Of a DNA stretch of 64,000 nucleotides, positions 4,814 through 63,934 are shown piece after piece. Source of the DNA: an uncultured bacterium (GTDB lineage: Bacteria; Acidobacteriota; HRBIN11; JAKEFK01); assembly GCA_963837395.1 (NCBI GenBank), contig CAWINI010000003.1:430889-494888 (forward strand), read 5' to 3'. Made by a program: the position numbers and the translations under genes. The number at the start of each line of letters is the position of its first letter. Within the stretch, counting starts at the first letter, position 1. The notes under the pieces are model-generated. The model did no database searches and was not told where the DNA came from. It worked only from the letters and a program-made list of their open reading frames with translations.

Positions 4814-7558
4814 CTACTGGCGAATCGACCTGCGAAGGGGCTCCCGTCCGTAGAGATATTGAGTAATGGTTTCTGACACAACCGAAAATGAATTCAGCGC
4901 GCGATCGGTAACTTCGGCAGCACGTTTTACATAAATGTAATTCCGGATTAGTGCAGTGAGTGAAAGTAATGGAACGAGTGAGAATAATACAAATGCAATC
5001 AACATTTTCTGGAAGAAACTAAATCGAATCGGAGTTTCTTCCTGGAAGTGAAGTAACAAATACGGTTTAAAGAAGAAGACGAAAGTTAATGTAAACGCAA
5101 GGAGCCAGAAAAAGTTCAGCAGTACAAGACCTATGATTAGAACGAGATGCGAAAGTGCTTTTCGCACAGGCACTGCAAGAGCGGCAAACCCATCCTGAAG
5201 ATGAAAATAATAAACATTAAATCCCTGACCGCTGCAGGTTTGTCGAACCCAGACACTTCCGGTTTGTTCAAGTGCATCTCTAGCACGATCCACTCTTGGC
5301 GAAACATCAGGATCTGATTGATATATGGGATGCCAGAACGAATCATACACATTTAGATCGGGAACGATTGATCCAGGCCGCTCCGGCCGCTGACGAAATA
5401 ATTCCTGAAAAGGACTTTCGGAAGGAACAAAAGTCAAATTTTCATGGTTGGCCATTGCTTCAACCACAAGATAAAAAGAATTATTTACAATACGGACACT
5501 AATCAAAATCGGTTTCTTAATTGTTCCAAATAAGACATTAGCCGATTTCGTATTCCAGTCATTTCCCGCACCACGACCGGTTACATTGATGTTCAATGAA
5601 GGCAAAGCAAGCGAGAAACGGCTTAAAAGTTGTCCATTTAAACTGTACAAGCTGACTGCAGATCGCAAACCCTGCCGCGCCATTTCCGTACGGATCCAAA
5701 GCCGATATGCAAGATCAGGAATGCGGGTATCAAGGGACACCGTACCAACTGCGCGATCGAGATCCTGTAATGAAATGTTCACTGCCTCCTGAACGTGTTT
5801 TCGGATTTCGTAAACTTGTGGCGCTGCAACGCTCTCAATGTATTTCTGTTGAAAATCTTTTGTGTAATGAAATCGGGTGAAATAAAAGACAACGCTGATT
5901 GCGGAACACAAAACTACCGTAATGATAAATCGCGTTAAGAGATTTACGTGTTCAAACCAATTCCAAAGTCCTGGTGTGTAATAAACGAAAAGTGAAATCC
6001 CAAGAAACAATGCTGCTGCTGGAATCAGCGGCATTGAAAAGGAAGGCTGGAAGATAAAGAAAAATGCAGCGAAAGCCGCAATCTGAGTTCCCGCAACTGT
6101 AAGTGCTTTCCATTTTGTTAATGGAAGTTTTCTTATGAAAAACGAAAACAGCAATGAAATTACGACAGTAAATGAAATGTCCAGCCATACTAAACCGAAT
6201 GCAGTAGAAGCTTGTGCAACTTCACCTTCTTCAAAGAAGAATGGCTGAAATCCCATAACGCTTCCGGTGACAAATTCTTTTTGAAGCTTGAAATACGCGA
6301 GAAACAAATATCCAACAAGGAAAGATGAAAGAAATAATGCCGCAATTCGGAAAGCTTTGTTATTGCTTTTCAAATGAAGTTTCAATCTTCGAAACAGCAG
6401 AACTAATGAGAAAACTGCATTCAATGCAAAAAATGAAGTGAAGATTAGATGTCCTGGTGTGTGAAAAATATTTCCATAACCGGCCACATGAAAAACATTT
6501 GTGTTGAACAATGTGCGCGTGCCAAATGTCGAAAATGATCCGAGCGTCAGCACAGAAAGAATTGTGCAACCCAGGAATATCAACCAGTAAGGAACGAGGC
6601 CCGGGCATCCTGGTTGTCCGCAAAAACCAACAAAACTAAATGTCAGAATTATTGTTGTGTAGATGAAGAAGACAAGCGCTAAGCATTCGATCCACCAGTG
6701 CAAATATCGGAATTGAGAAAGCAACATCTTGCCGTAATGTTGTTTGTCATAAACGGCAGAGAGCGAAAATTCATCAGTAATTTTAAAACTCGAAATTTTT
6801 AAGTCAGGCGAGCCTACAGTTGATTCTGTACTGGTGTATAAAAGTCTTGGACGAACAGGTAATCCATCCGTTAAGCGGTTATAAGTGCGCAAATAATAAT
6901 TTTCGACACCGTAATCGGCAGCGATTGGCAACAAGACGGTTACATAATAGAGATCTTCCTTAACACTCATTTCGCGTTTTACTTTCAGGAATTGTTGGTG
7001 CAGATCGTTATAGATGGAAACTTCTTCGGCGCCATAGGCAGGAAAATCTTCGTGGGTGCGTGGTTGACCCCGCCATGTTAGGAGTCGTCCTTCACGATAT
7101 ACGCCCCACCAGTAATCAACATCTCCAAATTTTTGCTGTAGCCGGATTTGGATTTGACCGGGATTCATGCCCGCAGTGCCGCGTAGTTCGTCTTGTATTG
7201 AAGTGAGCCGATCACGAGCTTGCTGCAAAAAGCGAGTAGTGCGTTCCTGTACTACTTTTGTACTGCGATCAACTTCACGTTGAAAATTTGCTTCAGAATA
7301 ATTGTGGTAAGCAACGAGCTGAAAGAATTCAACCAACAGAAGAATGGTGATTGAGAACCAGAGCAGCGCAACACCATAACGAGGTCTACCTTCAATAACC
7401 TTGAGCAGTAGTGGAATTACTGCAATAAAAAGAAGGGCAGCTAAGAAAAGGGCAACAGCATGAGTATGAACCTGCGGTTCTATCCGCATCCAGAGGTAAA
7501 GGAGTAGAAACGGTACGACGATAAAGCAGCGCTTTATTTCCGGGGACAGCCATTTCAT
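4814..7558 (-). CDS. Large polytopic membrane protein (about 14 TM segments plus two soluble loops). It is probably the sensor module of the adjacent histidine kinase.
   Basis: Many hydrophobic segments in a 914-aa ORF. It sits directly upstream and co-oriented with HK ORF 3198..4757, whose open frame overlaps its 3' end. Confidence 0.55.
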   Translation of the reverse strand: MKWLSPEIKRCFIVVPFLLLYLWMRIEPQVHTHAVALFLAALLFIAVIPLLLKVIEGRPRYGVALLWFSITILLLVEFFQLVAYHNYSEANFQREVDRSTKVVQERTTRFLQQARDRLTSIQDELRGTAGMNPGQIQIRLQQKFGDVDYWWGVYREGRLLTWRGQPRTHEDFPAYGAEEVSIYNDLHQQFLKVKREMSVKEDLYYVTVLLPIAADYGVENYYLRTYNRLTDGLPVRPRLLYTSTESTVGSPDLKISSFKITDEFSLSAVYDKQHYGKMLLSQFRYLHWWIECLALVFFIYTTIILTFSFVGFCGQPGCPGLVPYWLIFLGCTILSVLTLGSFSTFGTRTLFNTNVFHVAGYGNIFHTPGHLIFTSFFALNAVFSLVLLFRRLKLHLKSNNKAFRIAALFLSSFLVGYLFLAYFKLQKEFVTGSVMGFQPFFFEEGEVAQASTAFGLVWLDISFTVVISLLFSFFIRKLPLTKWKALTVAGTQIAAFAAFFFIFQPSFSMPLIPAAALFLGISLFVYYTPGLWNWFEHVNLLTRFIITVVLCSAISVVFYFTRFHYTKDFQQKYIESVAAPQVYEIRKHVQEAVNISLQDLDRAVGTVSLDTRIPDLAYRLWIRTEMARQGLRSAVSLYSLNGQLLSRFSLALPSLNINVTGRGAGNDWNTKSANVLFGTIKKPILISVRIVNNSFYLVVEAMANHENLTFVPSESPFQELFRQRPERPGSIVPDLNVYDSFWHPIYQSDPDVSPRVDRARDALEQTGSVWVRQTCSGQGFNVYYFHLQDGFAALAVPVRKALSHLVLIIGLVLLNFFWLLAFTLTFVFFFKPYLLLHFQEETPIRFSFFQKMLIAFVLFSLVPLLSLTALIRNYIYVKRAAEVTDRALNSFSVVSETITQYLYGREPLRRSIRQ

Positions 7559-7569
7559 ATGTAGATTCT

Positions 7570-7745
7570 ACTTCGTGATAATAGACATTAATTGTGCTGG
7601 TTTTCAACCCGACGTCGTCGAGACCTATTAATCACGGAAATTCGGAAGGCACAGAATTCACGGAATGCTTATTTTAGTCACGAAAAGACTGAAATCACGG
7701 AATATGATTTTCTTAATTCAGTGCATTCAGTGCTTCCGTGATTAA
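7570..7745. promoter_or_regulatory. Array of TCACGGAA-type octamers (four direct copies flanked by two inverted copies) in a divergent intergenic region.
   Basis: Direct copies atcacggaa (7631), ttcacggaa (7657), gtcacgaaa (7678), atcacggaa (7694). Inverted copies ttcgtgat (7573) and ttccgtgat (7733). Confidence 0.5.
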
Positions 7746-7767: not shown

Positions 7768-8964
7768 ATGGATTCTATGAACTTTTCAGAGCGCGCAAAA
7801 CGGATGGAACCTTCCGCTATCCGTGCAATGTCGAAACTTGCTGCTGCCGCTGGCCCTGAGTTGATCTCGCTTGCTGGAGGAATGCCCGATCCTGCTACAT
7901 TTCCTTTGGACCGGCTTGCTGAAGTAGCTGCATCTGAAATCCGCGATCATTATGGCAAAAGCCTTCAATACGGCCAGACTGCAGGATTTCGTCCGTTGCT
8001 GGATTGGATTTGTCGCTATATTGCGCGTTACAAGGTCCAATCTTCACCCGAAAATGTCATGTGTGCCACAGGATCGCAACAAGCATTGGACCTGATTACC
8101 GATGTGATGATCGATCCAGGCGATTTGATATTTGTGGAGTCGCCCACTTACATCGGCGCTTTGATCGTTTTCCGAAAAAGTGGCGGTGTAATGGTTGCGA
8201 TTCGTCAAGACAACGATGGAGTTGTTGTTGAAGATCTTGAAGAAAAACTTCGATCCGCTCCGCAAAATAAAAAGAAGCTGATTTACTTAATCAGCAATTT
8301 TCAAAATCCTTCCGGTGTCAGCATTACAGCTGAAAGACGGGCACGTGTTGCCGAAGTTGTGGAACGTTATGGGGCTTATTTGATTGAAGATGATCCTTAC
8401 GGTGAAATTTATTTTGATGAAATACCTCCCGATCCGATTGCAAGCATAATTCCAGATCGGACATTTTATCTGGGTACATTTTCGAAAATTGTGGCGCCAA
8501 CGTTTCGCACCGGATTCATTTCTGCACCGGAATCATTCACACGAAAATTTGAACTAGCGAAAGAAACATCGGACTTATGCAGCTCTTTGTTGGATCAAAG
8601 AATTTTGATGCGATTCTGTGCATCACCGGAATTTCCAGAACATCTACAGAAATTGCGATTGTTTTATTCAGAAAGAGGGCAAACCATTCAGAGTGCTCTG
8701 AGTGAAAATATGCCGCAGACTTTAACGTGGACTCATCCTACCGGCGGATTTTTTGTCTGGATGCGCCTGCCTGAAACTCTAGATTCAGAAAGTTTTCTGG
8801 AAGAAGCAGTCAGCAAGGAAAAAGTATCCTATTTAATAGGCAGACCATTCACCTGCGATCATTCGGCCCGGAATTATTTGCGGCTTGCGTTTTCAGCTGA
8901 ACCACCCGATCGCATTCGCGAAGCCGTCAGACGCCTCGCGACCGTAATCAAACGCAGAATATAA
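7768..8964 (+). CDS. PLP-dependent aminotransferase, class I/II (AAT/LysN-like).
   Basis: N-terminal 'ERAKRMEPSAIRAMSKL', 'LAGGMPDP', and Lys-containing 'TFSKIVAPTFRTGF'. Confidence 0.8.
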   Translation: MDSMNFSERAKRMEPSAIRAMSKLAAAAGPELISLAGGMPDPATFPLDRLAEVAASEIRDHYGKSLQYGQTAGFRPLLDWICRYIARYKVQSSPENVMCATGSQQALDLITDVMIDPGDLIFVESPTYIGALIVFRKSGGVMVAIRQDNDGVVVEDLEEKLRSAPQNKKKLIYLISNFQNPSGVSITAERRARVAEVVERYGAYLIEDDPYGEIYFDEIPPDPIASIIPDRTFYLGTFSKIVAPTFRTGFISAPESFTRKFELAKETSDLCSSLLDQRILMRFCASPEFPEHLQKLRLFYSERGQTIQSALSENMPQTLTWTHPTGGFFVWMRLPETLDSESFLEEAVSKEKVSYLIGRPFTCDHSARNYLRLAFSAEPPDRIREAVRRLATVIKRRI

Positions 8965-9508: not shown

Positions 9509-11026
9509 CTACGAGCTCCGTGTTTGCGTCTGTGTCTGTGTTTGAGTCTGAGTCTGTGACTGTGATTCTAACATAGGCTCAGTTTCCGCTTCAGGCTCCT
9601 CTTCGGTTTGCGTTTGAATCTGCGTCTGCGTTTGCGTTTGTGTCTGCGTTTGCGTTTGTGTCTGAGTCTGCGTTTGCGATTGCGTGGCCTCAGTTTCCGG
9701 AGGTGGAGGCGGCTGTCGTGTCAGACAGACTAAGTGTCCATCGTTCAAACCAAGAAACAAACGATCATTCGCCGTCATTGGCGCAGAACGGATACGAACG
9801 CCGGCATTGAAGTCTCCAACTCGTAAGCCTGTGTGTGGATCAAATCCTAAAACTACAGTTCCAAATGGAGCAAGAAATATGAGTGCACGATCAAAATGCA
9901 TTCGATTGTAAACGCGAGACAATGTCGGACTCAACCATGTATGCCCACCATTTTTGATTTTGAAACTGTAAAGGAAATTATCGAATGAAGATGTAATAAC
10001 GTCTTCAACACGATTCAATCTTTCATTCTTATAAAACATCGGCACACCGCGAATCGCTGCACCAGTTTTATACTTCCAATACTGTATTCCTGTTTCAGGA
10101 TCTAATCGATAAAATGTTCCATCTTCGGTTCCAAAGAAAACACCTTCCGGACCAGCAATTGGTGAACCTTGAATTTCAGCACCTGCAACAAATTTCCATT
10201 TAACAAATCCCGCTTGAGTATCAACCGCGTAGAGCGTTTTATCATTGCAACCTACGAAAACTTTTTTGTTGTACACCCATGGTGAAGTCATACAAGGCGC
10301 ATCAATTTTAAAACGCCATCCGGGATCGCCTGTCTTTGCATTAATGCTGACGATAGATCCTTTCTGGCTAACAAAATACAAATTCTTTTCATCTGCCATC
10401 GGACGTGTCATGAAACTTTCACCATCAAATTGTTTTCGCCAATAAGCTTTTCCCGTGTCTGCTGAAATCGCGAAAATTTTTCCACCAGTCGTTCCAACAA
10501 ACAAAGCACGATTAATCAAAATAAACGCTTCTTCAATTCCATCACCTACATTCGCACGCCATACAGCCTGGCCATTTTCCTGACTCACCCGATGGATTCC
10601 GCCGGTTTTACTTGCGACATAAACAGTTGATTCATCCGTTTGTGGCTGAGCAACCAAAGGTGCAGGCGTTTTGTATTTCCAGCCCAACTGTAATGGAAAA
10701 CCAATGTAAAGATACTGCGATTGTGGCTGTGTTTGAGTTTGGGTCTGGGTTTGGGTTTGGGTCTGTGTTTGCGTTTGAGTTTGTGTTTGAGTTCGCGAAG
10801 TTTGAGTAGGTTTCGTTTGAGCCAGAACTTGCGCAAGGAGCTTAGCGCCAACAGATTCATCAACCGTAGGGTTTTGAAAAAACTCAGGCTCTGAATGATC
10901 CTTGTGCTGAATCAATTGGACAATTCGCTGAGACGCACGTACGGTGAGATTCAAATAAAGGCCGGATAATACTAGCGTCAGTACGATCAGTAACTTGTTG
11001 AGCTTCATAACTCGAATTCTTGCCAT
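9509..11026 (-). CDS. Exported PQQ-repeat beta-propeller protein flanked by (TQ)n low-complexity tracts. An alternative start at 11008 overlaps the upstream stop as ATGA.
   Basis: Repeated 'G.I.A.D..TG...W..' motifs such as 'GKIFAISADTGKAYWRKQF', 'LYAVDTQAGFVKWKF' and 'FYRLDPETGIQYWKY'. Signal-like N-terminus. TQTQTQ runs at both ends. Confidence 0.75.
   Translation of the reverse strand: MARIRVMKLNKLLIVLTLVLSGLYLNLTVRASQRIVQLIQHKDHSEPEFFQNPTVDESVGAKLLAQVLAQTKPTQTSRTQTQTQTQTQTQTQTQTQTQTQPQSQYLYIGFPLQLGWKYKTPAPLVAQPQTDESTVYVASKTGGIHRVSQENGQAVWRANVGDGIEEAFILINRALFVGTTGGKIFAISADTGKAYWRKQFDGESFMTRPMADEKNLYFVSQKGSIVSINAKTGDPGWRFKIDAPCMTSPWVYNKKVFVGCNDKTLYAVDTQAGFVKWKFVAGAEIQGSPIAGPEGVFFGTEDGTFYRLDPETGIQYWKYKTGAAIRGVPMFYKNERLNRVEDVITSSFDNFLYSFKIKNGGHTWLSPTLSRVYNRMHFDRALIFLAPFGTVVLGFDPHTGLRVGDFNAGVRIRSAPMTANDRLFLGLNDGHLVCLTRQPPPPPETEATQSQTQTQTQTQTQTQTQTQTQIQTQTEEEPEAETEPMLESQSQTQTQTQTQTQTRSS
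9510..9700 (-). repeat. Hexanucleotide-period coding repeat (ACN-CAR)n encoding the C-terminal (TQ)n/(QT)n tracts.
   Basis: Plus-strand text reads gtytgngtytgn... (for example gtttgcgtctgtgtctgtgtttgagtctgag). Confidence 0.8.
10725..10800 (-). repeat. Hexanucleotide-period coding repeat encoding the N-terminal (TQ)n tract.
   Basis: gtttgggtctgggtttgggtttgggtctgtgtttgcgtttgag. Confidence 0.8.
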
Positions 11027-20480: not shown

Positions 20481-20516
20481 GACTCAGCCCCCGTTCGAAA
20501 CTGCGGCCTATCTAAT

Positions 20517-20593
20517 TTACCGCAGAGAACGCTGAGATCGCAGAATTAAATTTTTACCAGAATTTCTGCGTTCTCTGCATACTCTGGCGGTAA
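20517..20593. repeat. Imperfect palindromic REP-like element, TTACCGCAGAGAACGC...GCGTTCTCTGC...GGCGGTAA.
   Basis: Inverted arms are read directly. A second copy lies at 24437..24505 and a partial copy near 27888. Confidence 0.6.
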
Positions 20594-20599
20594 GAACAA

Positions 20600-24390: not shown

Positions 24391-24436
24391 GGGAGCAAAG
24401 TATACCAGATGCCGGATGCCGGATTCCAGATCCTTT

Positions 24437-24505
24437 TTACCGCAGAGATCGCAGAGCACGCTGAATATTTATTATTTCTGCGAACTCTGCGTGCTCTGCG
24501 GTAAA
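24437..24505. repeat. REP-like palindrome TTACCGCAGAGATCGCAGAGCACGC...GCGTGCTCTGCGGTAA.
   Basis: Near-perfect inverted arms. Same family as 20517..20593. Confidence 0.65.
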
Positions 24506-24509
24506 AATT

Positions 24510-27875: not shown

Positions 27876-27944
27876 CTCTACGGACTCCGCGAGTTTTGCG
27901 GTAAAAATTCTTACGGCTAAGAACCGTCTTTAGCACATTAGGCT

Positions 27945-28845: not shown

Positions 28846-28886
28846 AAATGCATTTTAGAAAAGACGCAAAAATTTCCCGTAAGTTC

Positions 28887-37646: not shown

Positions 37647-37648
37647 TT

Positions 37649-37804: not shown

Positions 37805-37829
37805 GCGCCGGCGAGCCGCCGGCGCTACA
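37805..37829. repeat. 25-bp repeat GCGCCGGCGAGCCGCCGGCGCTACA.
   Basis: Perfect inverted partner of 37649..37673. A third, similar copy lies at 61853..61876. Confidence 0.85.
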
Positions 37830-37858
37830 AAGCTTCACCACTCTCAAAATTGGGTATA

Positions 37859-42935: not shown

Positions 42936-42981
42936 AGGATCTTTGCAACTTTAATAATGCGAATTCGTCTGTTTAAATAAT

Positions 42982-43060
42982 AATCGTACTCAAACTCGTA
43001 CTCTTAATCTTACTCGGAGGATTACGAGTACGAGTACGATTACGAGTACGAGTACGAGTA
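42982..43060 (+). repeat. Hexamer-repeat hairpin element, copy B, ending 7 nt before the ATG at 43068.
   Basis: aatcgtactcaaactcgtactcttaatcttactcg, loop gagg, attacgagtacgagtacgattacgagtacgagtacgagta. Confidence 0.8.
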
Positions 43061-46216: not shown

Positions 46217-46218
46217 TA

Positions 46219-46283
46219 TGTAGTGGCGAGCGGAAGCTCGCCTATTCAATTTTGTCGAGGGCGACCTTCCGGTCGCCCCTACT
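46219..46283. repeat. Second copy of the nested palindrome TAGTGGCGAGCGGAAGCTCGCC...GGCGACCTTCCGGTCGCCCCTACTA.
   Basis: Same family as 28786..28845. Confidence 0.75.
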
Positions 46284-46291
46284 AGCGCACA

Positions 46292-46300
46292 TGTTATAAT
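46292..46300 (+). promoter_or_regulatory. Extended -10 (TGTTATAAT) ending 7 nt before the ATG at 46308, a candidate leaderless promoter for the ElbD-like gene.
   Basis: TGnTATAAT is read directly. No SD lies between it and the ATG. Confidence 0.4.
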
Positions 46301-46307
46301 TTCTCCC

Positions 46308-49300
46308 ATGCGAATTTCCCCCTCCTGGATCTTTCGAGGCCGAAACATTTTCTTCGTCGGCGGAACAGGTTTCCTGGGCAAAGTTACTCTCAGCACGCTG
46401 CTCGAGAGATTTCCAGACATTGGCAAAATTTATTTGATGGTTCGGGCTGGCTCAGGAGACGATAGTGAGGAACGATTTTGGAATAATGTTTTTACGTCCC
46501 CGGCTTTCGATCCCATTCGCGAACGTTATGGCGATCAAGTTAAATCATACCTGAGCGAAAAGCTGATTATTGTTGGCGGCGACATCACACACGATAACCT
46601 CGGCTACACCGAAGAACAAGCTCAGAAAATTGCCAGTGACATTGATCTTGTTCTGAATTCATCCGGTAACGTTAGTTTTAATCCTCCGCTGGAAACAGCG
46701 ATGAAAACGAATGTTACCGGCACCAAGAATTTGCTGGCATTTGTAAAACGGATGAAACGTCCGGCGTTTGTTCATACCAGCACATGTTTTGTTGCTGGAA
46801 ATCGAAAAGGTCAAATCTGGGAAGACGATCCAGTGATTGGATATTTTCCGCGCCGCGATGAATTAACAGAGGTAACGTTTTCAGTTGAACAAGAGCTGAA
46901 AGATTCTGAACGTTTAACTCGAAACATTGTTGAAGAAGCGGAGGATGCAACTTTAAACGCTGAATTCAGATCGACCGCGCGCAAACGTTTGATTGAAGAA
47001 GGTCGTGATCCTGATGAAGGCAATACATTAAATTTAGCCGCAGCACGCGAACGAAAAGATTGGATTCGCAATAAAATGAGCGATCTTGGATTGCAACGCG
47101 CGCAATGGTGGGGCTGGCCCAATATTTATACCTACACCAAGAGCATGGCAGAACAATTAATTGCTGCTGAAACTGGAATCGCTCGCGCTATCGTTCGGCC
47201 TGCAATTGTAGAAAGCTCAGTCTCGTATCCATTTCCGGGTTGGAATGAAGGCTTCAATACTACTGCCCCTCTGATTTTGTTTGCATTAAATGGACAAAGC
47301 ATTTATCCACTTAATCAAAATGTGATTCTCGACATTATTCCAGTTGATTACGTTGCATCTGCAATGCTCAGTGTCGCAGCACAAACGATTGTTGAACAAC
47401 CAAGACTTGTTTATCAGCTTTGTTCTGGCGATAGCAATCCGATCAAACTCAGAAGAATCGTTACGCTGCTTGGTCTTTATAAGCGCTCCTATTTTCAAGA
47501 TAAAAAAACCGGTAACCGTTTCTTGAACGCAATTGCTGCACGGATGGAAGCCAGTGCAGTTGAAGATGCACCATTCAGAAAGATTGTTCCGCGATTACGC
47601 GATGCAGTGGAAGAAATTTCAAAATCGTTAGCCAAAACGAAATCATATGGCGTGTTAAGTGGAATAAAAGGGCAACTCAAAAAAGGCGCCGATCATGCTG
47701 AAGCATTTTTGCATGAAGGACTTGAAGCATACGAACAATTTCGTCCATTCACAGTCTTGAACGATTATCATTTCCGCGCTGATAATGTCCGAGCGTTGTT
47801 CGAACGTATGCCTGATGAAGATCGGCAGATTTTAACCTGGGCTCCTGAAACACTCGATTGGTATCATTACTGGCTGAAAATTCACTTTCCTGGTTTGAAC
47901 CGTTGGGTATTTCCAAAAATGGAAGAAATTGGAAAGCCCAAACCAAAGCGTGTTTATACCTACCGCACACTTGTTGAATTGTTTGATTCCGTAACAAAGC
48001 TACATGCGGATCGGATCGGAATGCGGATCGAACGCGATGGAAAGCTTGAAGAATACACTTACGCCGATTTGCGCGAATTAATTCTGCACTGTGCCGCATT
48101 TCTGCGGGGTCATAGCATTGGCGCTGATGATCATGTTGCATTAATTGCTGAAAATTCTCCGGAGTGGGGAATCAGCTATTTCGGTATTATCCGCGCAGGC
48201 GCAACGTCCATTCCAATGGACAAAGATTTAACAACAGATGAAATTGTAAATCTGATCCGCGCGGGAAATGCAAAAGCAATTATTGTTAGCAATAAAATCC
48301 GCCGCAAACATTCAAAGTTAGAAAAGAAGCTGCAAGATCTAAATCTGAAAGTTCATCTATGGACATTTGATGATGTTTTTGCGCTGGGTGATGAGCAAAC
48401 TGAAAAAGAGCAGATTGCACAACTTCCAAAAGCCAGACCAGGAGCGATCGCATCTTTAATATTCACATCAGGCACAACCGGTCATCCGAAGGGCGTCATG
48501 CTGACGCAAAAAAATCTGACCAGCATGATGTCCCAATTGTTGAAGGTTTATGATGTTACAAAGGAAGACGGATTTTTAAGTATCCTTCCTTTGCATCATA
48601 CATTCGAATTTTCTACAGGGTTTTTGCTTCCATTCAGCCGCGGATCGCAAATTACCTACTTGCAAGAATTGACCGGTGATTCAATTTCCGATGCGTTTAA
48701 AACCAGCCATGTCACGATGATGGTTGGCGTTCCAGCACTTTGGGATTTATTGCGCAGACGGATCTTAAACAAATTCGGTGATAAATCGAAAAAACTTGAA
48801 GGCTTCGTGAAGTCTCTGATCAGTGTGAATCGCTGGATTCGTGAAAAAACTTCTCTGAATGTCGGACCATTCTTATTCTTCCCTGTTCATCATGGATTAG
48901 GCGGCCGCATCCGATATCTCATCAGTGGTGGTTCATCATTATCAGAAAAGACGTACGACACTTTTTATGGTTTGGGATTCTCGCTGAATGAAGGTTACGG
49001 ACTAACCGAAAGCTCACCGGTGCTGACTGTCACCCGGCCCGGAGCAAAACCAAAAATCGGAAGTGTTGGTGAAGCCTTGCCTGGCGTGGAAATTAGAATT
49101 TTGAATGCGAATGAAAAAGGTGTAGGCGAAGTGATTGCGCGCGGTCCAAATATCATGTCTGGCTATTATGAAAATAAGGAAGCAACCGAAACAACCATCA
49201 TCGATGGATGGCTTCATACCGGTGATCTTGGATACGTAGATGAAGACGGCAATTTGTTTTTGGTAGGCCGATCAAAAGATCTGATCTTAGGTCCAAGTGG

Positions 49301-56746: not shown

Positions 56747-58774
56747 ATGCATATAGTACTACCAGCGCGCTTAAAAGAAGGCCAAAAATTAAAGGATCTG
56801 GCCGATGATCAGCCGAATGCAATTTCGGCTTCGAAAAACATAATCCGCGGCAAAGCGCTCATTTTTTGGGACCAAAAACATCCCGGCAAGAAACTAGATG
56901 CGATCGATACCGATCAAATCACTCCTTCAAAATTTTGTGTTTCCGAGAGTTTAGAATCGCTGGATGAGAAATGGAAAGAAGGAGCCTTCCGCTATTTGAT
57001 GCGGGATTTTCGAGAGCGTGTGCATCGCGGCGAGACATTTGTCATCGCCGGTGATCGTTTTGGAATTGGTTCTTCGCGCGAAATGAGTCCTGCCGGTCTT
57101 AAAGCAATTGCAGAAGAAGTTGGCTTACAGATGGTGATTGTTTGCGGAAACAACATGGGTGATATTTTTCGCCGGAATGCATTTAATCTCGGCCTTCAAG
57201 TGGTTCAATCACCTGAAGCTGTTCAAGATGCGCAGGATGGTGATGAGTTTACGTTCGATGTTCTATCGCGCAAATTAACCAATGTAACTCAAGAAAAGGG
57301 ATACGAGCCCCAACCCTTAACACCGAAAGAGGATGAGATTCGAAGAACCGGTGGAATTTTCGCATTAGGCCGCAGAGAATTTCGCGAGTCAGTTGCACGT
57401 AAACCGGAAATTGTTTGGCCCGATCCGGAAACTGCAAAAAAGATGACAACCACAGAACAAATCGTTTGGGCTCATCGTGTGGATAAAGATGCTGTGGTAA
57501 AACCCGGCGCTACTTTGCGGGTGTTTGCAGATTTGCTACCAGCATCTGATGGCACTGCCCCGTTTTCGATTCACACTTTTAATCAAATCACTGGCGGCAA
57601 TACGATCTATCCAAGACAAGCCGCGGTCGCAAATGATCATTTTGTGTTTACCGGAAAAGCAGAAGACGAAGCGCAGACTTCCATCTCACGTGAATTCGCG
57701 AAGATACATAAAATTGAAAAACCATATTATGCAGATCCCGGTGATGGTATCTTTCATTTTTATTTTCCAGAACAAGGACTGGTATATCCCGGACAATTTA
57801 TTCCGGGTGCCGATTCACACAGCCGAGCTTATGGTGCATATGGCGCAGTCGGATTCGGTGTTGGATCAACAACTCTTGGATTTGGATGGTCGACAGGTTA
57901 CGTTTACTTTACTCTTGCGCGCGCACGCCGGGTAATTTTTGCCGGCAAACTTCAGCCATGGGTAAGCGGTAAAGATATCGTTTTGAAATTATTGGAACGA
58001 TGGGGAACCGCACAATCACAAGGGATGTCGGTTGAATTCGTGGATCAAAACAAACAATTGCCTGTTGCGTACCGAAATACAATCGCAAACATGATGGCTG
58101 AAGGTGAAGCACAAAACGGAATTTTTGCGCCAGATGAATTGACGTATGAATGGTATCGCCAAAAAGGGATTACAGAACTTCCCTATCCATCACTGCAACC
58201 CGGTTCTGAAGCATTTTATGAAATCGCTGAAACATTAAATTTAAGTGATGTTGTTCCGATGATTGCGAAACCATTCAGCCCCGGAAATGCATATCCTGCG
58301 GAAGAGGTGGCGAAAGAACATATTCCTTTTGATAAGGCTTACATCGGTTCATGTACGAATGGAAGTTATGATGATTTACTGCAGGCAGCATTGGTGATCC
58401 GTGCGGCACGAAAAGCAGGAATACACAAGACAGCGCGCGATCTGGTGATTTTTCCAGGATCAGGTGGTGTGAAGAAAGCGATCGAAATTTCGGATCCACG
58501 TTTAGGAAATGAATCGATCGCCGATGTGTTTCGATCCGTGGGTGGAGAGATTCGAAATTCGTGGTGTGGTCCGTGTTTTGGGCAAGGTCCGGATGCATTG
58601 AAAATCGGACAACGTGCAATCACATCCTTTAATCGCAACTGGCAAAATCGTATGGGGGTTGGTGGCGAAGGTTATCTTGCAAGTCCGGCTGTGGTTGCAT
58701 CTTCAGCAATGGTTGGATATATGGCTCCTCCAACCGAACTGAATATTAAATGGACCGCGGAACAAAATATATAA
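56747..58774 (+). CDS. Aconitase-superfamily Fe-S hydro-lyase with permuted domain order: a LeuD-like swivel domain N-terminal to a LeuC-like catalytic core.
   Basis: 'FVIAGDRFGIGSSRE' (swivel). 'SCTNGSYDDL' and 'WCGPCFGQG' (cluster ligands). Confidence 0.7.
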   Translation: MHIVLPARLKEGQKLKDLADDQPNAISASKNIIRGKALIFWDQKHPGKKLDAIDTDQITPSKFCVSESLESLDEKWKEGAFRYLMRDFRERVHRGETFVIAGDRFGIGSSREMSPAGLKAIAEEVGLQMVIVCGNNMGDIFRRNAFNLGLQVVQSPEAVQDAQDGDEFTFDVLSRKLTNVTQEKGYEPQPLTPKEDEIRRTGGIFALGRREFRESVARKPEIVWPDPETAKKMTTTEQIVWAHRVDKDAVVKPGATLRVFADLLPASDGTAPFSIHTFNQITGGNTIYPRQAAVANDHFVFTGKAEDEAQTSISREFAKIHKIEKPYYADPGDGIFHFYFPEQGLVYPGQFIPGADSHSRAYGAYGAVGFGVGSTTLGFGWSTGYVYFTLARARRVIFAGKLQPWVSGKDIVLKLLERWGTAQSQGMSVEFVDQNKQLPVAYRNTIANMMAEGEAQNGIFAPDELTYEWYRQKGITELPYPSLQPGSEAFYEIAETLNLSDVVPMIAKPFSPGNAYPAEEVAKEHIPFDKAYIGSCTNGSYDDLLQAALVIRAARKAGIHKTARDLVIFPGSGGVKKAIEISDPRLGNESIADVFRSVGGEIRNSWCGPCFGQGPDALKIGQRAITSFNRNWQNRMGVGGEGYLASPAVVASSAMVGYMAPPTELNIKWTAEQNI

Positions 58775-58857
58775 ATGGGAGGGCGGGCTCTGTGCCCGCC
58801 GTCGGATTGGCGGGCAGGGACGCCCGCCCTCCAGACGCGTTTTATTTTGGAGGCTTT

Positions 58858-59976
58858 ATGACAATTGAAGCAATAAACCCGGCAACCGAAGAAATCATCC
58901 GAACTTATGAGCAAACGACCTGGGAACAAATCGAATCAATTCTTGATGAAATGCAAAAGACGTTTTTAAGCTGGAAAGAAACGAACTTTGCGGAGCGCAC
59001 CCAAAAAATGAAAGTAGCTGCGCGCATTCTCAGGGATCATAAAGACGAATACGCACGATTGATGGCAGATGAAATGGGAAAACCGCTTGCGCAAGGTAAA
59101 GCTGAAGCCGAAAAGTGCGCATGGTGTTGCGATTATTATGCAGACAATGCTAAGAAATTCCTGGCACCTGAAGTTGTAGAAACGGATGCATCGAAAAGTT
59201 TTGTCAGCTATCAACCGTTAGGAATTGTACTTGCAGTAATGCCCTGGAATTTTCCTTTCTGGCAAGTTTTTAGATTTGCAGCGCCAGCATTAATGGCCGG
59301 GAATGCAGGTTTATTGAAACATGCCTCCAATGTTCCAGGTTGCGCACTGGCGATTGAAAAGATCTTTCATGATGCGGGGTTTCCAAAGAATTTATTTCGA
59401 AGTGTTCTTATAAGCAATGATGTTGTCGCCCGCATTATTGAACATCCTGATGTTAAAGCGGCAACTTTAACTGGCAGTACTCCAGCAGGAAAAGCGGTTG
59501 CATCAAAAGCGGGCGAAGTTCTTAAAAAAACTGTACTCGAACTTGGCGGAAGCGATCCATACGTAATCCTGAAAGATGCTGATTTGGATTCCGCTGTTGA
59601 TACCTGTGTTACATCACGATTAATTAATGGCGGACAAAGCTGCATCGCTGCTAAGCGATTTATTGTTGTAAAAGAAGTCAGGAAGAATTTCGAAGATAAA
59701 TTTGTAGCAAAAATGAAATCGAAAAAAATGGGCAATCCGCTGGAAGAAGGAGTGGATGTGGGGCCGCAAGCAAGAATCGATTTGAGGAATGCATTGCATC
59801 GCCAGGTTGTGATCAGCATTGAAAAAGGGGCCCGTTTACTTTTGGGAGGGACGATTCCAGATCACAAAGGCGCGTATTACGAGCCCACAGTTCTAACGGA
59901 TGTGAAAAAAGGGATGCCTGCATATGATGACGAATTGTTTGGGCACTGTTGCCGCAATCATTCCGGTGGAAAATGA
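58858..59976 (+). CDS. NAD(P)-dependent aldehyde dehydrogenase (succinate-semialdehyde-DH-like), N-terminal about 360 aa. It is frameshifted near 59930.
   Basis: 'VMPWNFPFWQ', 'LELGGSDP' and 'GQSCIAAKR' (catalytic Cys). SD ggagg precedes the internal ATG. Confidence 0.8.
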   Translation: MTIEAINPATEEIIRTYEQTTWEQIESILDEMQKTFLSWKETNFAERTQKMKVAARILRDHKDEYARLMADEMGKPLAQGKAEAEKCAWCCDYYADNAKKFLAPEVVETDASKSFVSYQPLGIVLAVMPWNFPFWQVFRFAAPALMAGNAGLLKHASNVPGCALAIEKIFHDAGFPKNLFRSVLISNDVVARIIEHPDVKAATLTGSTPAGKAVASKAGEVLKKTVLELGGSDPYVILKDADLDSAVDTCVTSRLINGGQSCIAAKRFIVVKEVRKNFEDKFVAKMKSKKMGNPLEEGVDVGPQARIDLRNALHRQVVISIEKGARLLLGGTIPDHKGAYYEPTVLTDVKKGMPAYDDELFGHCCRNHSGGK

Positions 59977-60226
59977 AGAAGAAGCAATTCAGGTTGCAAA
60001 CGATTCTGTGTTTGGACTTGGTGCTGCTGTGTTTACACAAGATCTAAAACGCGGGGAAAAAATTGCGGAAGAAAGATTGGAGGCCGGATCTTGTTTTGTA
60101 AATACGTTTGTGAAATCAGATCCGCGTCTTCCGTTTGGCGGGATCAAAGAATCAGGATATGGACGCGAGCTTTCGTATTTTGGAATCAGGGAGTTTGTAA
60201 ACATCAAAACGGTTTACATCAAATAA
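59924..60226 (+). CDS. Aldehyde dehydrogenase C-terminal segment after the frameshift.
   Basis: 'AAIIPVENEEEAIQVANDSVFGLGAAVFT...PFGGIKESGYGRE'. Confidence 0.75.
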   Translation: MMTNCLGTVAAIIPVENEEEAIQVANDSVFGLGAAVFTQDLKRGEKIAEERLEAGSCFVNTFVKSDPRLPFGGIKESGYGRELSYFGIREFVNIKTVYIK

Positions 60227-60230
60227 AATC

Positions 60231-60307
60231 AACCACGAAGCACACGAAGAAGCACGAAGTAAAAAATACTTCAAAAACCTTTGTGGCACTTCGTGATCTT
60301 CGTGGTT
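60231..60307 (+). repeat. CACGAAG heptamer array (three copies) with a downstream inverted copy (CTTCGTG, CTTCGTGG). It lies upstream of the M20 gene.
   Basis: aaccacgaagcacacgaagaagcacgaagt...ggcacttcgtgatcttcgtggtt. Confidence 0.75.
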
Positions 60308-60325
60308 AAAAAAGGGAGGGGATCT

Positions 60326-61759
60326 ATGAAAATCACACTCATCAGCTTACTAATCGTTTGGTCATTGTTCATTACTTTCACTTTCGCGGATGACGCTCTA
60401 AAAAAATCCGCAGTGGCAAACATCGAAAAACGCGCCACAGAAATGACTGCATTGAGCGATCAAATCTGGGAATATGCAGAGCTTGCATTGCGCGAGACCA
60501 AATCATCGAAAGCATTGGCGGACTATGCGGAACAGCAAGGATTTAAAGTAACGCGCGGCGTTGCAGAAATGCCCACCGCATTTATCGCTGAATTTGGCGA
60601 AGGGCGACCGTTGATTGCAATCCTTGGTGAATATGATGCGCTGCCAGGCATTTCGCAAAAAGCCTCATCACATAAAGAAGCATTGCAAGCTGGAGCTCCC
60701 GGTCATGGTTGCGGACACAATTTGTTTGGAGTTGCCAGTCTTGGTGCCGCCATTGCGATCAAAGATTTAATTCAAGCCGGCAAACTGAAAGGAACAATCC
60801 GCTTTTACGGCACACCCGCGGAAGAATCAGTTGGCGGTAAAGCGTACATGGTGCGTGAGGGTTTGTTTAAGGATGTTGATGTTGCATTAGCATGGCATCC
60901 GGATGATGAAACAGAAGCGGATACAGACAGCACTCAAGCGATGGTTGATTTCATTGTGGAGTTTAAAGGGAAAGCAGCGCATGCTGCAGCCGATCCATGG
61001 AATGGAAGAAGCGCATTAGATGGATTGGAGCTTTTTACGCATGCATTAAATATGATGCGAGAACATGTACGTCCTACAGTACGAATGCATTACGTGATCC
61101 AATCCGGCGGAGATGTTCCGAACGTCGTCCCGGAATATGCAAAGTTATGGTGTTGGGTTCGTGATTCCAAAAAAGTCAGAGTCGACGAATTGCTTGAACG
61201 TGTAAAAAAGATGGCAGAAGGTTCAGCAATGTCAGCAGGTGTGGAAGCAAAGCTCACAGTTCAAGGCGGATCACCGGAAGTTCTGGTGAACATGACCGGC
61301 GAAAAAATACTTGATGCAAATTTGCGATGGCTCGGACCTGTGAAATTCACGCCAGAGGAACAAGCCTTTGCAAAAGCAATTCAAAAAGAAACTGGCGTAA
61401 AAGAAGTTGGCTTAACTGAAAAAATCAATGATTTGAACTTAAACCCTGGTGAACCGGAAGGTGGATCTACGGATGTTGCCGACGTGAGCTGGGTCGTTCC
61501 AACATTACATGTTTCAGTGGTTACTGCTGCAAAAGATGCACCATGGCACGCATGGCCAGTGGTTGCAACCGGTGGAATGTCGATTGGACACAAAGGAATG
61601 ACGTATGCGTCAAAAGCTCTTGCTGCCACCATGATCGATCTATACAAAGATCCGAAAAAGGTTGAGGCCGTGAAAAAAGATTTCGCGGATAAAAAAGGCG
61701 ACGTTATATATAAAGGATATATTCCCGACGGCCCGCCCAAGGTTTTGAATAATAAGTAA
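60326..61759 (+). CDS. Exported M20-family amidohydrolase/peptidase.
   Basis: Signal 'LISLLIVWSLFITFTFA'. 'GHGCGHN' and 'HAAADPWNG' (M20 metal ligands). SD gggagggg. The track start at 60281 translates the repeat. Confidence 0.8.
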   Translation: MKITLISLLIVWSLFITFTFADDALKKSAVANIEKRATEMTALSDQIWEYAELALRETKSSKALADYAEQQGFKVTRGVAEMPTAFIAEFGEGRPLIAILGEYDALPGISQKASSHKEALQAGAPGHGCGHNLFGVASLGAAIAIKDLIQAGKLKGTIRFYGTPAEESVGGKAYMVREGLFKDVDVALAWHPDDETEADTDSTQAMVDFIVEFKGKAAHAAADPWNGRSALDGLELFTHALNMMREHVRPTVRMHYVIQSGGDVPNVVPEYAKLWCWVRDSKKVRVDELLERVKKMAEGSAMSAGVEAKLTVQGGSPEVLVNMTGEKILDANLRWLGPVKFTPEEQAFAKAIQKETGVKEVGLTEKINDLNLNPGEPEGGSTDVADVSWVVPTLHVSVVTAAKDAPWHAWPVVATGGMSIGHKGMTYASKALAATMIDLYKDPKKVEAVKKDFADKKGDVIYKGYIPDGPPKVLNNK

Positions 61760-61765
61760 TTTTTT

Positions 61766-61841
61766 AACCACGAAGTACACGAAGGGCACGAAAAAAAGAA
61801 TCATAGAAAAACTTCTTGCTTCTTGGTGAACTTCGTGGTGT
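61766..61841 (+). repeat. Second CACGAAG array with inverted partner, downstream of the M20 gene in the same orientation.
   Basis: aaccacgaagtacacgaagggcacgaa...gaacttcgtggtg. Confidence 0.7.
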
Positions 61842-61852
61842 GTTCTTGGAAT

Positions 61853-61876
61853 GCCGGCGAGGCCGCCGGCGTTACA
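61853..61876. repeat. Third copy of the GCCGGCGAG(G)CCGCCGGCG(T)TACA palindrome, abutting the stop of the Rieske oxygenase gene.
   Basis: gccggcgaggccgccggcgttaca. Confidence 0.75.
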
Positions 61877-62978
61877 AACTGCTGCTCAAGAATTCGTGCA
61901 GCAACACGTGAAAATGGTGAACGCCATTTTCACGCTTCACTGAAAAGCGTCCACGAACATAGGTTTTTGATTTCAAACCACGCTGCACAGCTTCACAAAT
62001 TTCGATATCTTCTTTTTGAATCTGATCGCTGAACGCTATCGATTCATTCAACGACTCCCATCCTGAAGCCGATCCTGGATCATTGAAGTACCATTCGAAA
62101 ATTGTTAGTGTTTGTTGATGATCGAGCGGTAGTATGTGATTGAATTGCAAATTATCCGGATATATGTTGATCATCCAGTTTGGAAACAGCCAATAATACA
62201 GAGCTTTTGATTCTTCACTTGATCTCACATACCGCCGATCGCGCCCGTGCAAATCTCCGGGCTTCAAGTCTCGAATTGGAGCATGGGCAGAACTGTAATA
62301 GCGGAATGTGTCTACCCGATATTTTTCATAATCCACTTCACGAAACAATTCCGGATGGGCGATTGGAATATGATATCCCTCCAAATAATTATCAATGTAA
62401 ACTTTCCAATTGCAGTTCACAATGTAATCACGCCGTTCAACCAGCCGCATTTTATTTAAATCGACACCCATTTCTTGAACTTCATCGTTGATCTTTCCCA
62501 TGTAGTCTCGAAGCGGCATTGGATGCGATTTCAAATTTACATAAACAAACGGTCCCCAGGATTCTACTGTTGCAGATGGAAGACAAATTTCATCTTTGTT
62601 CCAGTTTTTTACACCTTCAAAATCAGGTTGTGTTAAAAGGCGGCCATCAAGACTGTAAGTCCAGCCATGATATCGGCACTGCAAACTCTTTCGATTTCCT
62701 TTTCCAACAGCAACAGGCCCGGCACGATGGCGGCAAACATTTGACATCGCATGCAGCTTTTCATCGGTCCCATTTGTTACAACCAATGGTTCCCCCGCAA
62801 TTTCGCAAGCATGAAAATCACCCGGACGTTGCAGCAATTCGGTTCTGCTTACTGGCTGCCATGTTTGGGAAAAGATTTTTTGTTTTTCAAATTCTAAGAA
62901 AGCAGGATCGGTGTACCAGCGTGCGGGAATAGTTGAGGCGAGGGATAAGTCCGGTTCGGGATCGTAATCTTTGAACAT
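61872..62978 (-). CDS. Rieske [2Fe-2S] non-haem-iron oxygenase alpha subunit (GbcA / choline-monooxygenase-like).
   Basis: 'CRHRAGPV...LQCRYHGWTY' and catalytic-domain His/Asp motifs. Confidence 0.8.
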   Translation of the reverse strand: MFKDYDPEPDLSLASTIPARWYTDPAFLEFEKQKIFSQTWQPVSRTELLQRPGDFHACEIAGEPLVVTNGTDEKLHAMSNVCRHRAGPVAVGKGNRKSLQCRYHGWTYSLDGRLLTQPDFEGVKNWNKDEICLPSATVESWGPFVYVNLKSHPMPLRDYMGKINDEVQEMGVDLNKMRLVERRDYIVNCNWKVYIDNYLEGYHIPIAHPELFREVDYEKYRVDTFRYYSSAHAPIRDLKPGDLHGRDRRYVRSSEESKALYYWLFPNWMINIYPDNLQFNHILPLDHQQTLTIFEWYFNDPGSASGWESLNESIAFSDQIQKEDIEICEAVQRGLKSKTYVRGRFSVKRENGVHHFHVLLHEFLSSSL

Positions 62979-63062
62979 AATCGTACTCTTACTCTTACTC
63001 TTACTCTTACTCGTACTCTCAATCTAGCTTTCGATTACGATTAAGAGTAAGAGTACGAGTAT
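62979..63062 (-). repeat. Hexamer-repeat hairpin element, copy C. It fills the intergenic gap and, in minus sense, ends ...GAGTACGATT-ATG.
   Basis: aatcgtactcttactcttactcttactcttactcgtactctcaatc, loop tagctttc, gattacgattaagagtaagagtacgagtatg. Confidence 0.8.
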
Positions 63063-63064
63063 GA

Positions 63065-63934
63065 TTATTCCAGTTGCTTTAAGAATTCGGAGGCAACTTG
63101 TTTAACATCGCGGTGATCAACATCGATTTCCGCATTCAGCCGCCTCATTTCATCGGCTGAGATTTTACCACCCAGCTGATTCAACACATCACGCAATTCC
63201 GGATACTGCGCAAGCGTTGCACTTCGAATTACCGGTGCTGCTTCATAAGGCGGAAAATAATGCTGGTCATCTTCCAACACAAACAAATCAAGTTTTGCTA
63301 TAACACCATTTGTCACATCGCCCGCAGCAAAATCTATTTGTTTATTGGCAAGTGCCTTATAACTTAATGTCAAATCCATCACACGCGGCGGTTCCTTGAA
63401 TTTAAGCCCATACAATGCTGCCATTCCAGGATAACCATCTTTGCGTTCCATAAATTCATAACCAAATCCAGCGATCCACTGTGGCGCATATCGTGCCGCT
63501 TCAGAAATCGTTTTGATACCCAGCTTTCGTGCATCTTCACCACGTATCAAAATCGCAAAAGTATTGTTAAAGCCAAGCGGCTTCAACCATTCCAAATTGA
63601 ACTGCTTCACATAACTATCATGGACAATTTTGAATACAGTTGATGCATCATTTTGTGGTTCCATTTTCAGGATCGCAGTCAAAGCAGTGCCGGTGTATTC
63701 AACGTAGGTATCCATCCCACCGGCTGTTAAAGCTTGATGGCAAATAAAGCTTCCACCTAAATTTAGCTTTCTTTGAACTTTTAACGTGGTCTTGTTTTCA
63801 ATTTGCTGCGCGATGATTTCACCCAGCAGTACCTGCTCACTAAAATTTTTTGAGCCAACAACAATTTCATTATTTTTGCTGTTACATCCCGCAAAAGCAG
63901 TGATAATCAGAATCAGGATGAATATTTTTTTCAT
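63065..63934 (-). CDS. ABC-transporter substrate-binding lipoprotein, glycine betaine/choline type (OpuAC-like).
   Basis: Lipobox 'ITAFAGC'. The OpuAC-fold assignment rests on overall resemblance. Confidence 0.75.
   Translation of the reverse strand: MKKIFILILIITAFAGCNSKNNEIVVGSKNFSEQVLLGEIIAQQIENKTTLKVQRKLNLGGSFICHQALTAGGMDTYVEYTGTALTAILKMEPQNDASTVFKIVHDSYVKQFNLEWLKPLGFNNTFAILIRGEDARKLGIKTISEAARYAPQWIAGFGYEFMERKDGYPGMAALYGLKFKEPPRVMDLTLSYKALANKQIDFAAGDVTNGVIAKLDLFVLEDDQHYFPPYEAAPVIRSATLAQYPELRDVLNQLGGKISADEMRRLNAEIDVDHRDVKQVASEFLKQLE

Follow-up and report, generated by a model that had tools for sequence, protein, structure and literature searches.

Foldback repeats on both sides of an acidobacterial M20 amidohydrolase gene are probably coding-free relatives of GxxExxY cassettes

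Several classes of repeats that fold back on themselves have been described. The miniature transposable elements with inverted repeats known as MITEs (Correia, RUP and Nezha are cases in point) are short, non-coding, multi-copy intergenic sequences with terminal inverted repeats, and they have longer relatives where an open reading frame (ORF) lies between the same termini. Repetitive extragenic palindromes (REP, REPIN) are highly dispersed and flank one particular small gene, that of the transposase RAYT (TnpA_REP). In Drosophila and other eukaryotes, foldback (FB) transposons have long inverted termini made of a variable number of short tandem repeats. The window analysed here, a stretch of 64,000 nucleotides (nt) from an uncultured member of the Acidobacteriota (contig CAWINI010000003.1), carries repeats that recall all three. 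Two of them, elements A and B (Table 1), lie on either side of a gene for an M20/M25/M40 amidohydrolase and are made of the heptad CACGAAG. They are two independent ORF-less copies of a dispersed palindromic foldback repeat. More specifically, they are probably MITE-like members of a family of cassettes coding for a protein known by its motif, GxxExxY; the mobility of the family and the role of its nuclease are what we infer from comparing sequences. The M20 gene is a bystander, flanked by the two elements and part of neither, and the elements are very probably not dedicated regulators of that gene.

Both elements are imperfect palindromes of about 75 nt, with no ORF inside, each arm displaying two or three CACGAAG heptads at a spacing of 9-10 nt and ending with the terminus TTTM-ACCACGAAG; the terminal inverted repeats read ACCACGAAG.. 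and ..CTTCGTGGT. Element A separates two tandem genes, between the stop codon of an aldehyde dehydrogenase (ALDH) gene (60226) and the Shine-Dalgarno sequence and ATG of the M20 gene (60314 and 60326). Its left arm (60231-60259) has exact forward heptads at 60234, 60243 and 60253, its loop (60260-60279) is made of 20 A/T-rich nt, and its right arm (60280-60308) has inverted CTTCGTG units at 60289 and 60298 and a degenerate CTTTGTG at 60280, giving the overall succession AACCACGAAG-ca-CACGAAG-aag-CACGAAG, loop, CTTTGTG-gca-CTTCGTG-at-CTTCGTGGTT. Element B separates convergent genes, M20 (stop at 61759) and a Rieske oxygenase gene (stop at 61872). Forward units are found there at 61769 and 61778, with a degenerate CACGAAA at 61787, and inverted units are CTTCGTG at 61831 together with the degenerate forms CTTGGTG and CTTCTTG; the left arm reads AACCACGAAG-ta-CACGAAG-gg-CACGAAa and the right arm CTTCTTG-CTTCTTGGTG-aa-CTTCGTGGT. 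As RNA, element A is predicted to fold at -32.4 kcal/mol (z -7.2) and element B at -28.6 kcal/mol (z -4.7).

The original prediction had seen, on each side of the M20 gene, three forward copies followed by an inverted partner. The arrays are real, with motifs where they had been reported. CACGAAG occurs 18 times in the window for 7.4 expected, and the stronger signal is clustering: two clusters of at least three copies within 80 nt (5 and 3 hits) are present, and none arose in 1000 simulations of the window under a first-order Markov model. With up to three mismatches, the 18-nt arm pattern ACCACGAAGNNCACGAAG has six matches in the window for 0.26 expected, and the four arms of A and B fit it with no mismatch or one. 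The count of three forward copies holds for element A, where all are exact, but element B has two exact copies and a degenerate one. The anatomy has to be redrawn, as each element is a long hairpin with arrays in both arms rather than an array plus a partner. The direct orientation ascribed to the pair is uninformative, because palindromes read alike on both strands and the loops of A and B have no visible likeness. Rfam gave no match at gathering threshold over the whole window, and chance-level similarity only (E > 1) at the locus with a relaxed E-value; no terminator-like site was found at A or B on either strand in a search for Rho-independent terminators (the tails are AAAAAAGGG and GTGTTCTTGG); a combined terminator and promoter scan returned nothing at the elements, and a scan for tRNA and tmRNA genes found none.

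The repeat is not confined to this genome. Scanning metagenomes with ACCACGAAGNNCACGAAG retrieved at least 120 stretches, and most of those listed share the anatomy of the elements, beside unrelated genes; this is a 16-base pattern, with some chance matches expected in a collection so large, and a few matches are clearly coding. In 154 arms, conservation extends outside the search pattern, with an A-rich segment at -10 to -7, TTT[A/C] at -4 to -1 and a third CACGAAG at +20 to +26 (57-79% per position), before it decays past +28. The terminus consensus is AAAA-NN-TTT[A/C]-ACCACGAAG. Complete elements were recovered in 48 cases, mostly of 53-98 nt, in contigs of 38-72% GC, and the number of heptad units varies between arms and between copies. 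In their first 2-nt spacer, the arms of one element resemble each other no more than arms taken from different elements do (0.385 versus 0.351, the observed value being reached in 507 of 2000 permutations), and no compensatory covariation of spacers between arms was found; the four bases outside the first heptad display a modest within-element correlation (9 of 2000 permutations). The conserved part is thus made of the heptads and the terminus, not of perfect complementarity between arms. Conserved heptads with spacers that do not co-vary fit sequence-specific recognition. Loci L101 (1728-1860) and L157 (2271-2400) carry a composite repeat of about 135 nt, a CACGAAG hairpin followed by GAAATCTGTTTTTACTTTTTGGTTGCGGCTTCGCCGC.TTGGGTC, with identical heptads and differing spacers and loop. 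That these could be orthologous copies was ruled out by their non-homologous flanks, leaving a dispersed composite repeat.

Could such structures arise anew at each site, as by-products of replication? Within a quasi-palindrome, slippage would lengthen the short repeats of one arm, and the other arm would acquire the mirror image through template switching, without any mobility. The differing unit numbers would be explained in this way. So would a giant hairpin (7856-8079; -134 kcal/mol for a 261-nt region) in L012, a Blastocatellales metagenome-assembled genome (MAG), where it lies downstream of an M20 homologue, at a distance of a few hundred nt; its arms are built from a higher-order unit of 31 nt (TTTACCGCAAAGGCCGCGAAGGTAGCAAAGG), in three copies. 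Independent origins, however, cannot yield an identical 38-nt arm consensus, TTTM-ACCACGAAG included, across contigs of 38-72% GC, nor can they account for the exact bracketing of a conserved ORF described below. As an explanation of the family this is hardly credible, while slippage may explain the variation in unit number within it.

This ORF gives the elements their likely identity. When the ORFs next to the arrays were clustered, GxxExxY was, among the metagenome stretches listed, the sole family present at more than two loci. Its product, 123 amino acids long in the CACGAAG loci and 123-131 overall, matches TIGR04256 'GxxExxY' (E about 1e-44) and PF13366 PDDEXK_3, and has the fold of a PDDEXK_3 / Cas4-like nuclease, in which the D..ExK motif is invariant; the catalytic residues of this motif are intact in the 123-residue protein. 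At L092, L097 and L134 the arms bracket the ORF exactly. On the left, ..TTTCC-ACCACGAAG-ga-CACGAAG-ag-CACGAAG-ATG has the start codon abutting the last heptad of the arm; on the right, the stop codon is followed after 4-20 nt by CTTCGTG-ct-CTTCGTG-tc-CTTCGTGGT-GAGA. Exact bracketing recurs at a yaaH|X|recN-like site that is conserved, in L203-L213 (proteins P0039 and P0066). A shorter array, devoid of the ACC terminus, precedes the GxxExxY ATG in L101, where the distal end has a full terminal arm, and in L144 an internally deleted GxxExxY remnant sits inside intact arms. The arms of elements A and B are the same as those that bracket the ORF in L092, L097, L134 and L203-L213 and that flank it in L101.

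A second protein search, with an artificial consensus query, sampled six further independent contexts from other GxxExxY subfamilies, beside the 4 loci of the metagenome scan (L092, L097, L101 and L134). Inverted heptad arrays stand on both sides in all six. The acidobacterial locus L216 (CP065000.1, sufBD|X|sufS) is of the CACAGAG type, AACCACAGAG-ga-CACAGAG-ag-CACAGAG; L220, from a planctomycete, and L229 have CACCGCAGAG arrays, whose CGCAGAG heptad is that of a family present in the window; Polaribacter L224 and L225 (hemL|X|hemE) have AACCGCGAAG/CGCAAAG arrays (types CGCAAAG and CGCGAAG). The heptad type (CACGAAG, CACAGAG, CGCAGAG or CGCAAAG) tracks the similarity of the proteins: those of the CACGAAG type are 65-91% identical to one another and 48-56% to the rest, and the two of the CGCAGAG type share 74%. 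Arms of both the CACGAAG and the CGCAGAG types enclose GxxExxY ORFs outside the window. The copies in the window would be non-autonomous, MITE-like counterparts of such cassettes. The heptads may act as recognition sites, most plausibly for the GxxExxY nuclease that the cassette encodes, and recognition would permit spread via transposition, homing or gene conversion. In that altered form, the idea that one DNA-binding protein family is involved survives: the candidate binder would be the cassette nuclease, not a regulator.

Little is on record about this protein. Each of two protein searches gave at least 8000 matches, and PDDEXK_3 was entered as 'unknown' in a survey of PD-(D/E)XK proteins. 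A scan of viral contigs for relatives had no confirmed match, a PDB sequence search with the GxxExxY profile returned nothing, comparison with PADLOC gave weak similarity to Cas4 only, and PHROGs gave nothing. Whether sought by sequence or by concept, no description of the arrays or of repeats flanking GxxExxY was found in the searchable literature, which leaves subscription journals out of reach. About 1.2 kb upstream of one cassette, in the WYL/Cas3 neighbourhood of L226, a 23S_rRNA_IVP (four-helix-bundle) gene (670-1400) is flanked on both sides by some 10 copies of a 9-nt unit (AAACGGCTT/AAACTGCTT); a second small 'selfish-looking' ORF family thus also has periodic flanks.

Several facts weigh against placing elements A and B in the cassette family. 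The 64-kb window has no GxxExxY gene by tblastn or by hidden Markov model (HMM) search, and its copies are ORF-less. One of its heptad families, CACGGAA, was not seen around a GxxExxY ORF among the sampled loci, which are themselves few (10 independent contexts). Among the 48 elements, no direct-repeat signal of a target-site duplication was present at any offset or length. A single insertion polymorphism is resolved at the sequence level: in Polaribacter, comparison of L225 (2897-3026) with L224 (2897-2938) reveals 88 nt inserted directly after the GxxExxY cassette, made up of an ORF-less CGCAAAG hairpin on its own and a second copy of 23 nt of flanking sequence (TTAATMAAATATTATGATAAAAA), the hemE start codon included, and a duplication of this kind is atypical for transposition. 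Finally, 16 elements exceed 100 nt, and in 13 of them the core is unrelated to GxxExxY. Internal deletion is therefore not the general origin of the ORF-less forms, and the arms may form an all-purpose hairpin scaffold, open to invasion by ORFs.

This last point opens the way to a scenario where the hairpin comes first and the ORF second. Hairpins, maintained by the host or spreading by themselves, would be primary, and selfish GxxExxY ORFs of the homing type would insert into their loops, using the arms as homology or recognition sites; the copies in the window would then be 'empty' targets rather than decayed cassettes. PD-(D/E)XK enzymes do include homing endonucleases. Most elements are ORF-less, their cores are heterogeneous as just described, and composite arrangements exist (L226, L228 and L229), in which a GxxExxY ORF has a complete hairpin, itself ORF-less, on one side and a single extra arm on the other. 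By contrast, the deleted ORF within intact arms in L144 points to decay rather than to an empty site, the parallel between heptad type and protein fits a co-inherited unit equally well, and alleles with and without the ORF were not found together at any locus. We hold this scenario, the main rival to our interpretation, to be unlikely; yet it differs from descent from cassettes in direction only, and the heterogeneous cores and composite arrangements may justify keeping it in mind.

Kinship between A, B and the GxxExxY cassettes, our preferred interpretation, extends to other repeats of the window (Table 1). The element between divergent genes near 7630 has exact CACGGAA copies at 7633, 7659 and 7696 (forward) and 7734 (inverted), with the variants TTCGGAA, CACAGAA and CACTGAA. 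Its left arm reads AATCACGGAA-at-TTCGGAA-gg-CACAGAA-tt-CACGGAA and its right arm, in reverse complement, AATCACGGAA-gc-CACTGAA-tg-CACTGAA, with a strict 9-nt period in both and an RNA fold of -36.4 kcal/mol (z -4.9). It corresponds to a third array (7570-7745) of the original prediction, which is present, although the four direct copies announced are three exact ones plus variants, and the left inverted copy (7571) is a variant, CTTCGTG. Repeat and folding scans further revealed three CGCAGAG-type elements, all starting with TTTACCGCAGAG and with a 9-nt period. CACGAAG, CACGGAA and CGCAGAG elements have a common design: a (T)TWA(C/T)C end, C-R-C-R-R-A-R heptads, a 9-nt period and two inverted arms. 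Judged by this design, the CACGGAA and CGCAGAG elements are sister families of the CACGAAG elements. The notion of one repeat lineage behind the arrays is thus borne out in a broad sense, that of an architecture shared by the three types, two of which (CACGAAG and CGCAGAG) have arms that bracket GxxExxY.

Table 1. Coordinates of the repeats and of the M20 gene in the 64,000-nt window.
Feature	Position	Strand	Remarks
Element A	60231..60308	.	CACGAAG-family foldback hairpin, 78 nt
Element B	61766..61839	.	CACGAAG-family foldback hairpin, 74 nt, more degenerate than A
M20/M25/M40 amidohydrolase gene	60326..61759	+	477 amino acids; Pfam Peptidase_M20, M20_dimer
CACGGAA-type foldback element	7630..7743	.	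between divergent genes 4814..7558 (-) and 7768..8964 (+)
CGCAGAG-family foldback hairpin	20516..20599		between ribE and ribBA (minus strand); TTTACCGCAGAG-aa-CGCTGAG-at-CGCAGAA ... inverted
CGCAGAG-family foldback hairpin	24434..24507		between Cache-HAMP-HD and TPR genes; nearly perfect, -45.7 kcal/mol
Solo arm	27876..27911	-	ACCGCAAAA-ct-CGCGGAG-tc-CGTAGAG, abuts ATG of FHA-GAF-cyclase gene
GC-rich REP-like hairpin	61843..61870	.	GCCGGCGAGGCCGCCGGC with TTACAAAC tail; kin to GTAG-tagged copies 37647-37831

These elements come and go. A syntenic acidobacterial relative (L237/L238; GC 43.8%, RibBA 87% identical), obtained via RibBA homologues, which assign the window to Acidobacteriota, allows comparison at three sites. 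At ribE|ribBA, the 84-nt hairpin of the window is absent in L237/L238, and a further JGI relative has just a 20-nt spacer. At the HD|TPR site, the full hairpin of the window faces a solo arm, AAACCGCAAAGACACAGAG, in L237. At the PspA|cyclase site, the window has a solo CGCAAAA/CGCGGAG arm and L237 (2556-2582) a solo right arm of the CACGAAG family. Presence/absence polymorphism between related genomes is thus seen for the sister-family elements, and between close relatives, orthologous intergenic sites gain heptad elements, lose them or see them replaced. For A and B themselves, no orthologous 'empty site' was found among the loci of M20 homologues, which are at most 69% identical. In the same region of the window, the Cache-HAMP-HD gene (24510-26250, minus strand) is split into two ORFs of 462 and 119 codons where L237 has a single gene of 579, a possible second frameshift beside the one suspected in the ALDH gene (see below). 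The solo arm at the ATG of the FHA-GAF-adenylate cyclase gene mirrors the left arms that abut the GxxExxY ATG, which hints that purine-rich arms may serve as translation-initiation regions.

Stable hairpins in RNA might also be kept because they benefit the host, as REP-like stabilisers of mRNA, as sites of processing by RNase III or, between cistrons, as factor-dependent terminators, with spread as a secondary matter. The RNA hairpins are predicted to be very stable, the elements leave hardly any room in the intergenic gaps they occupy, and short elements are more frequent between convergent (8) and tandem (9) genes than between divergent ones (2); in addition, cassettes lie within operons (sufBD|X|sufS, hemL|X|hemE) with no obvious polarity. 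Two elements of the window, however, lie between divergent genes (7630; 42980), the other contexts being the riboflavin operon (ribE|ribBA), tandem genes (A) and convergent genes (B). There is no U-tract or terminator-like site, the spacers show no compensatory pairing between arms, and presence is not conserved between close relatives. A host role of this sort is quite unlikely to be what maintains the elements, and even as a possible stabiliser or processing site it is not needed to explain the data. Under the cassette interpretation, elements that happen to be transcribed would form stable hairpins and may incidentally affect mRNA processing or stability.

What, then, of the M20 gene? The original prediction had considered the arrays as sites for a local regulator, such as an AraC or winged helix-turn-helix (wHTH) protein, or the gene as a cassette mobile between them. 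Heptads repeated about once per helical turn do recall arrays of operators or iterons, and one gene does have an element on each side. The same element, however, accompanies unrelated genes in metagenomes, in more than 100 stretches, and its relatives occur inside operons (ribE|ribBA) at sites where close relatives have none. Of the two elements, B is downstream of M20 and between genes that converge, and each is a self-contained palindrome. No transposase, integrase or RAYT gene is present among the window proteins scanned against Pfam. None of the 80 homologue loci from other genomes has a CACGAAG array beside M20, and arrays of other heptad types lie just downstream of the M20 homologue in L004, L012 and L072. 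Both local regulation of M20 and mobility of the gene are, on these grounds, very improbable, and the arrays carry no specific information on M20 regulation. Array hairpins do appear in loci selected only by M20 homology, in L004, L012, L019, L021 and L027 (Acidobacteriota) and L072 (Bacteroidota). The nearest M20 relatives, 69% identical, are in Acidobacteriota/Blastocatellia MAGs; the homologues collected (L001-L080, 55-69% identity) are patchily distributed in Acidobacteriota, Planctomycetota, Opitutales, Gammaproteobacteria and Bacteroidota MAGs.

Short-read data from the window's organism (ERR11718635) agree with the assembly at this locus, two short Logan contigs matching the window at 100% identity. 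Some 3.75 kb past the window end, a short-read Logan contig has a third CACGAAG arm. The ALDH gene upstream of M20 (58750-60226) is split into overlapping ORFs, 58750..59976 (Aldedh 8-371) and 59924..60226 (368-461), which indicates a frameshift or an error of assembly around 59924-59976; L081, an independent short-read contig, starts at 59947.

The window harbours two further repeat families separate from the heptad elements, hexamer palindromes and GTAG-tagged GC-rich REP-like hairpins. The former, (YACTCK)n .. (MGAGTR)n, occupy whole intergenic gaps at 31380-31463, 42980-43060 and 62977-63068, and their purine-rich 3' arm reaches the downstream ATG. Logan contigs L081 (window 59947-63010) and L082 (62984-67812) both terminate within the copy at 62977-63068, which suggests a high-copy repeat. 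The latter stand out in a genome of 44% GC at 28783-28852, 46216-46311, 37650-37679 with 37799-37828, 61843-61870 and 58776-58835, several, among them those at 28783-28852 and 37650-37828, with the classical 5' GTAG tag (GTAGTGGCGACCGGAAAGTCGCC; GTAGCGCCGGCGGCTCGCCGGCGC); the copy at 61843 follows directly after element B, outside the heptad family. In addition, 6/12-nt periodic repeats (TGCGTTTGCGTCTG...) at 9501-9697 and 10704-10822, at both ends of a PQQ/beta-propeller ORF (9509..11026, minus strand), are presumably low-complexity coding repeats.

A broader proposal can be made, tentatively and as a possibility we rate below even chances: GxxExxY proteins, minimal Cas4-like PD-(D/E)XK nucleases with thousands of homologues, might be the enzymes of an unrecognised class of prokaryotic mobile elements, cassettes of about 440 bp with inverted ends made of clade-specific heptad arrays, whose ORF-less derivatives, the CACGAAG, CGCAGAG and CACGGAA hairpins of the window among them, would number hundreds per genome in the intergenic regions of Acidobacteriota, Bacteroidota, Planctomycetota and other phyla. 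If this were true, it would provide a first functional context for GxxExxY/PDDEXK_3, a very large family annotated by motif name only, and account for intergenic hairpins that form a conspicuous class in Acidobacteriota and in other phyla of the soil. Heptads of 9-nt period in inverted ends, co-varying with a protein, are an unusual design for a bacterial repeat, and this co-variation points to a testable code of protein-DNA (or protein-RNA) recognition. Small programmable nucleases, or a new mechanism of transposition or homing, could follow. In practice, heptad hairpins break short-read assemblies, mislead ORF callers and can pass for regulatory sites, as they did here.

Comparison with described systems places the heptad elements near several of them. 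Like MITEs, they are about 75 nt long, non-coding, intergenic and multi-copy, with terminal inverted repeats, with longer relatives that have an ORF between the same termini and with an internally deleted intermediate (L144). Unlike MITEs, their terminal repeats are tandem arrays rather than a single repeat, no target-site duplication was detected, and the ORF of the long form codes for a 123-residue PD-(D/E)XK protein outside known transposase families, mobility being here what we infer. With REP and REPIN sequences they share the status of highly dispersed extragenic palindromes, often at the 3' ends of genes, that flank one particular small gene; they differ by the lack of a GTAG/CGTC tag, by periodic heptad arms and by the nature of that gene, GxxExxY with its PD-(D/E)XK fold instead of RAYT, a Y1 HUH transposase. 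Intervening sequences of 23S rRNA (23S_rRNA_IVP ORFs) also have a small selfish-looking ORF between flanks whose complementarity yields a long stem, but heptad elements lie in intergenic regions of mRNA, not in rRNA helices, and their ORF family is different. Integron cassettes offer another parallel, attC sites being imperfect palindromes of similar size just downstream of ORFs, while heptad arms flank a single gene on both sides; yet the R''/R' cores (RYYYAAC/GTTRRRY) have no match in the heptad ends, AACCACGAAG and CTTCGTGGT[T/G], tandem arrays make up the arms, and heptad elements are found within housekeeping operons as well as between divergent genes. In design, the likeness with FB transposons is striking, through long inverted termini of short tandem repeats in variable number, a variable or nearly absent loop and occasional copies with an ORF. 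These are eukaryotic elements at the kilobase scale, with unrelated sequences and proteins, and the likeness is an analogy of design, not membership of a family.

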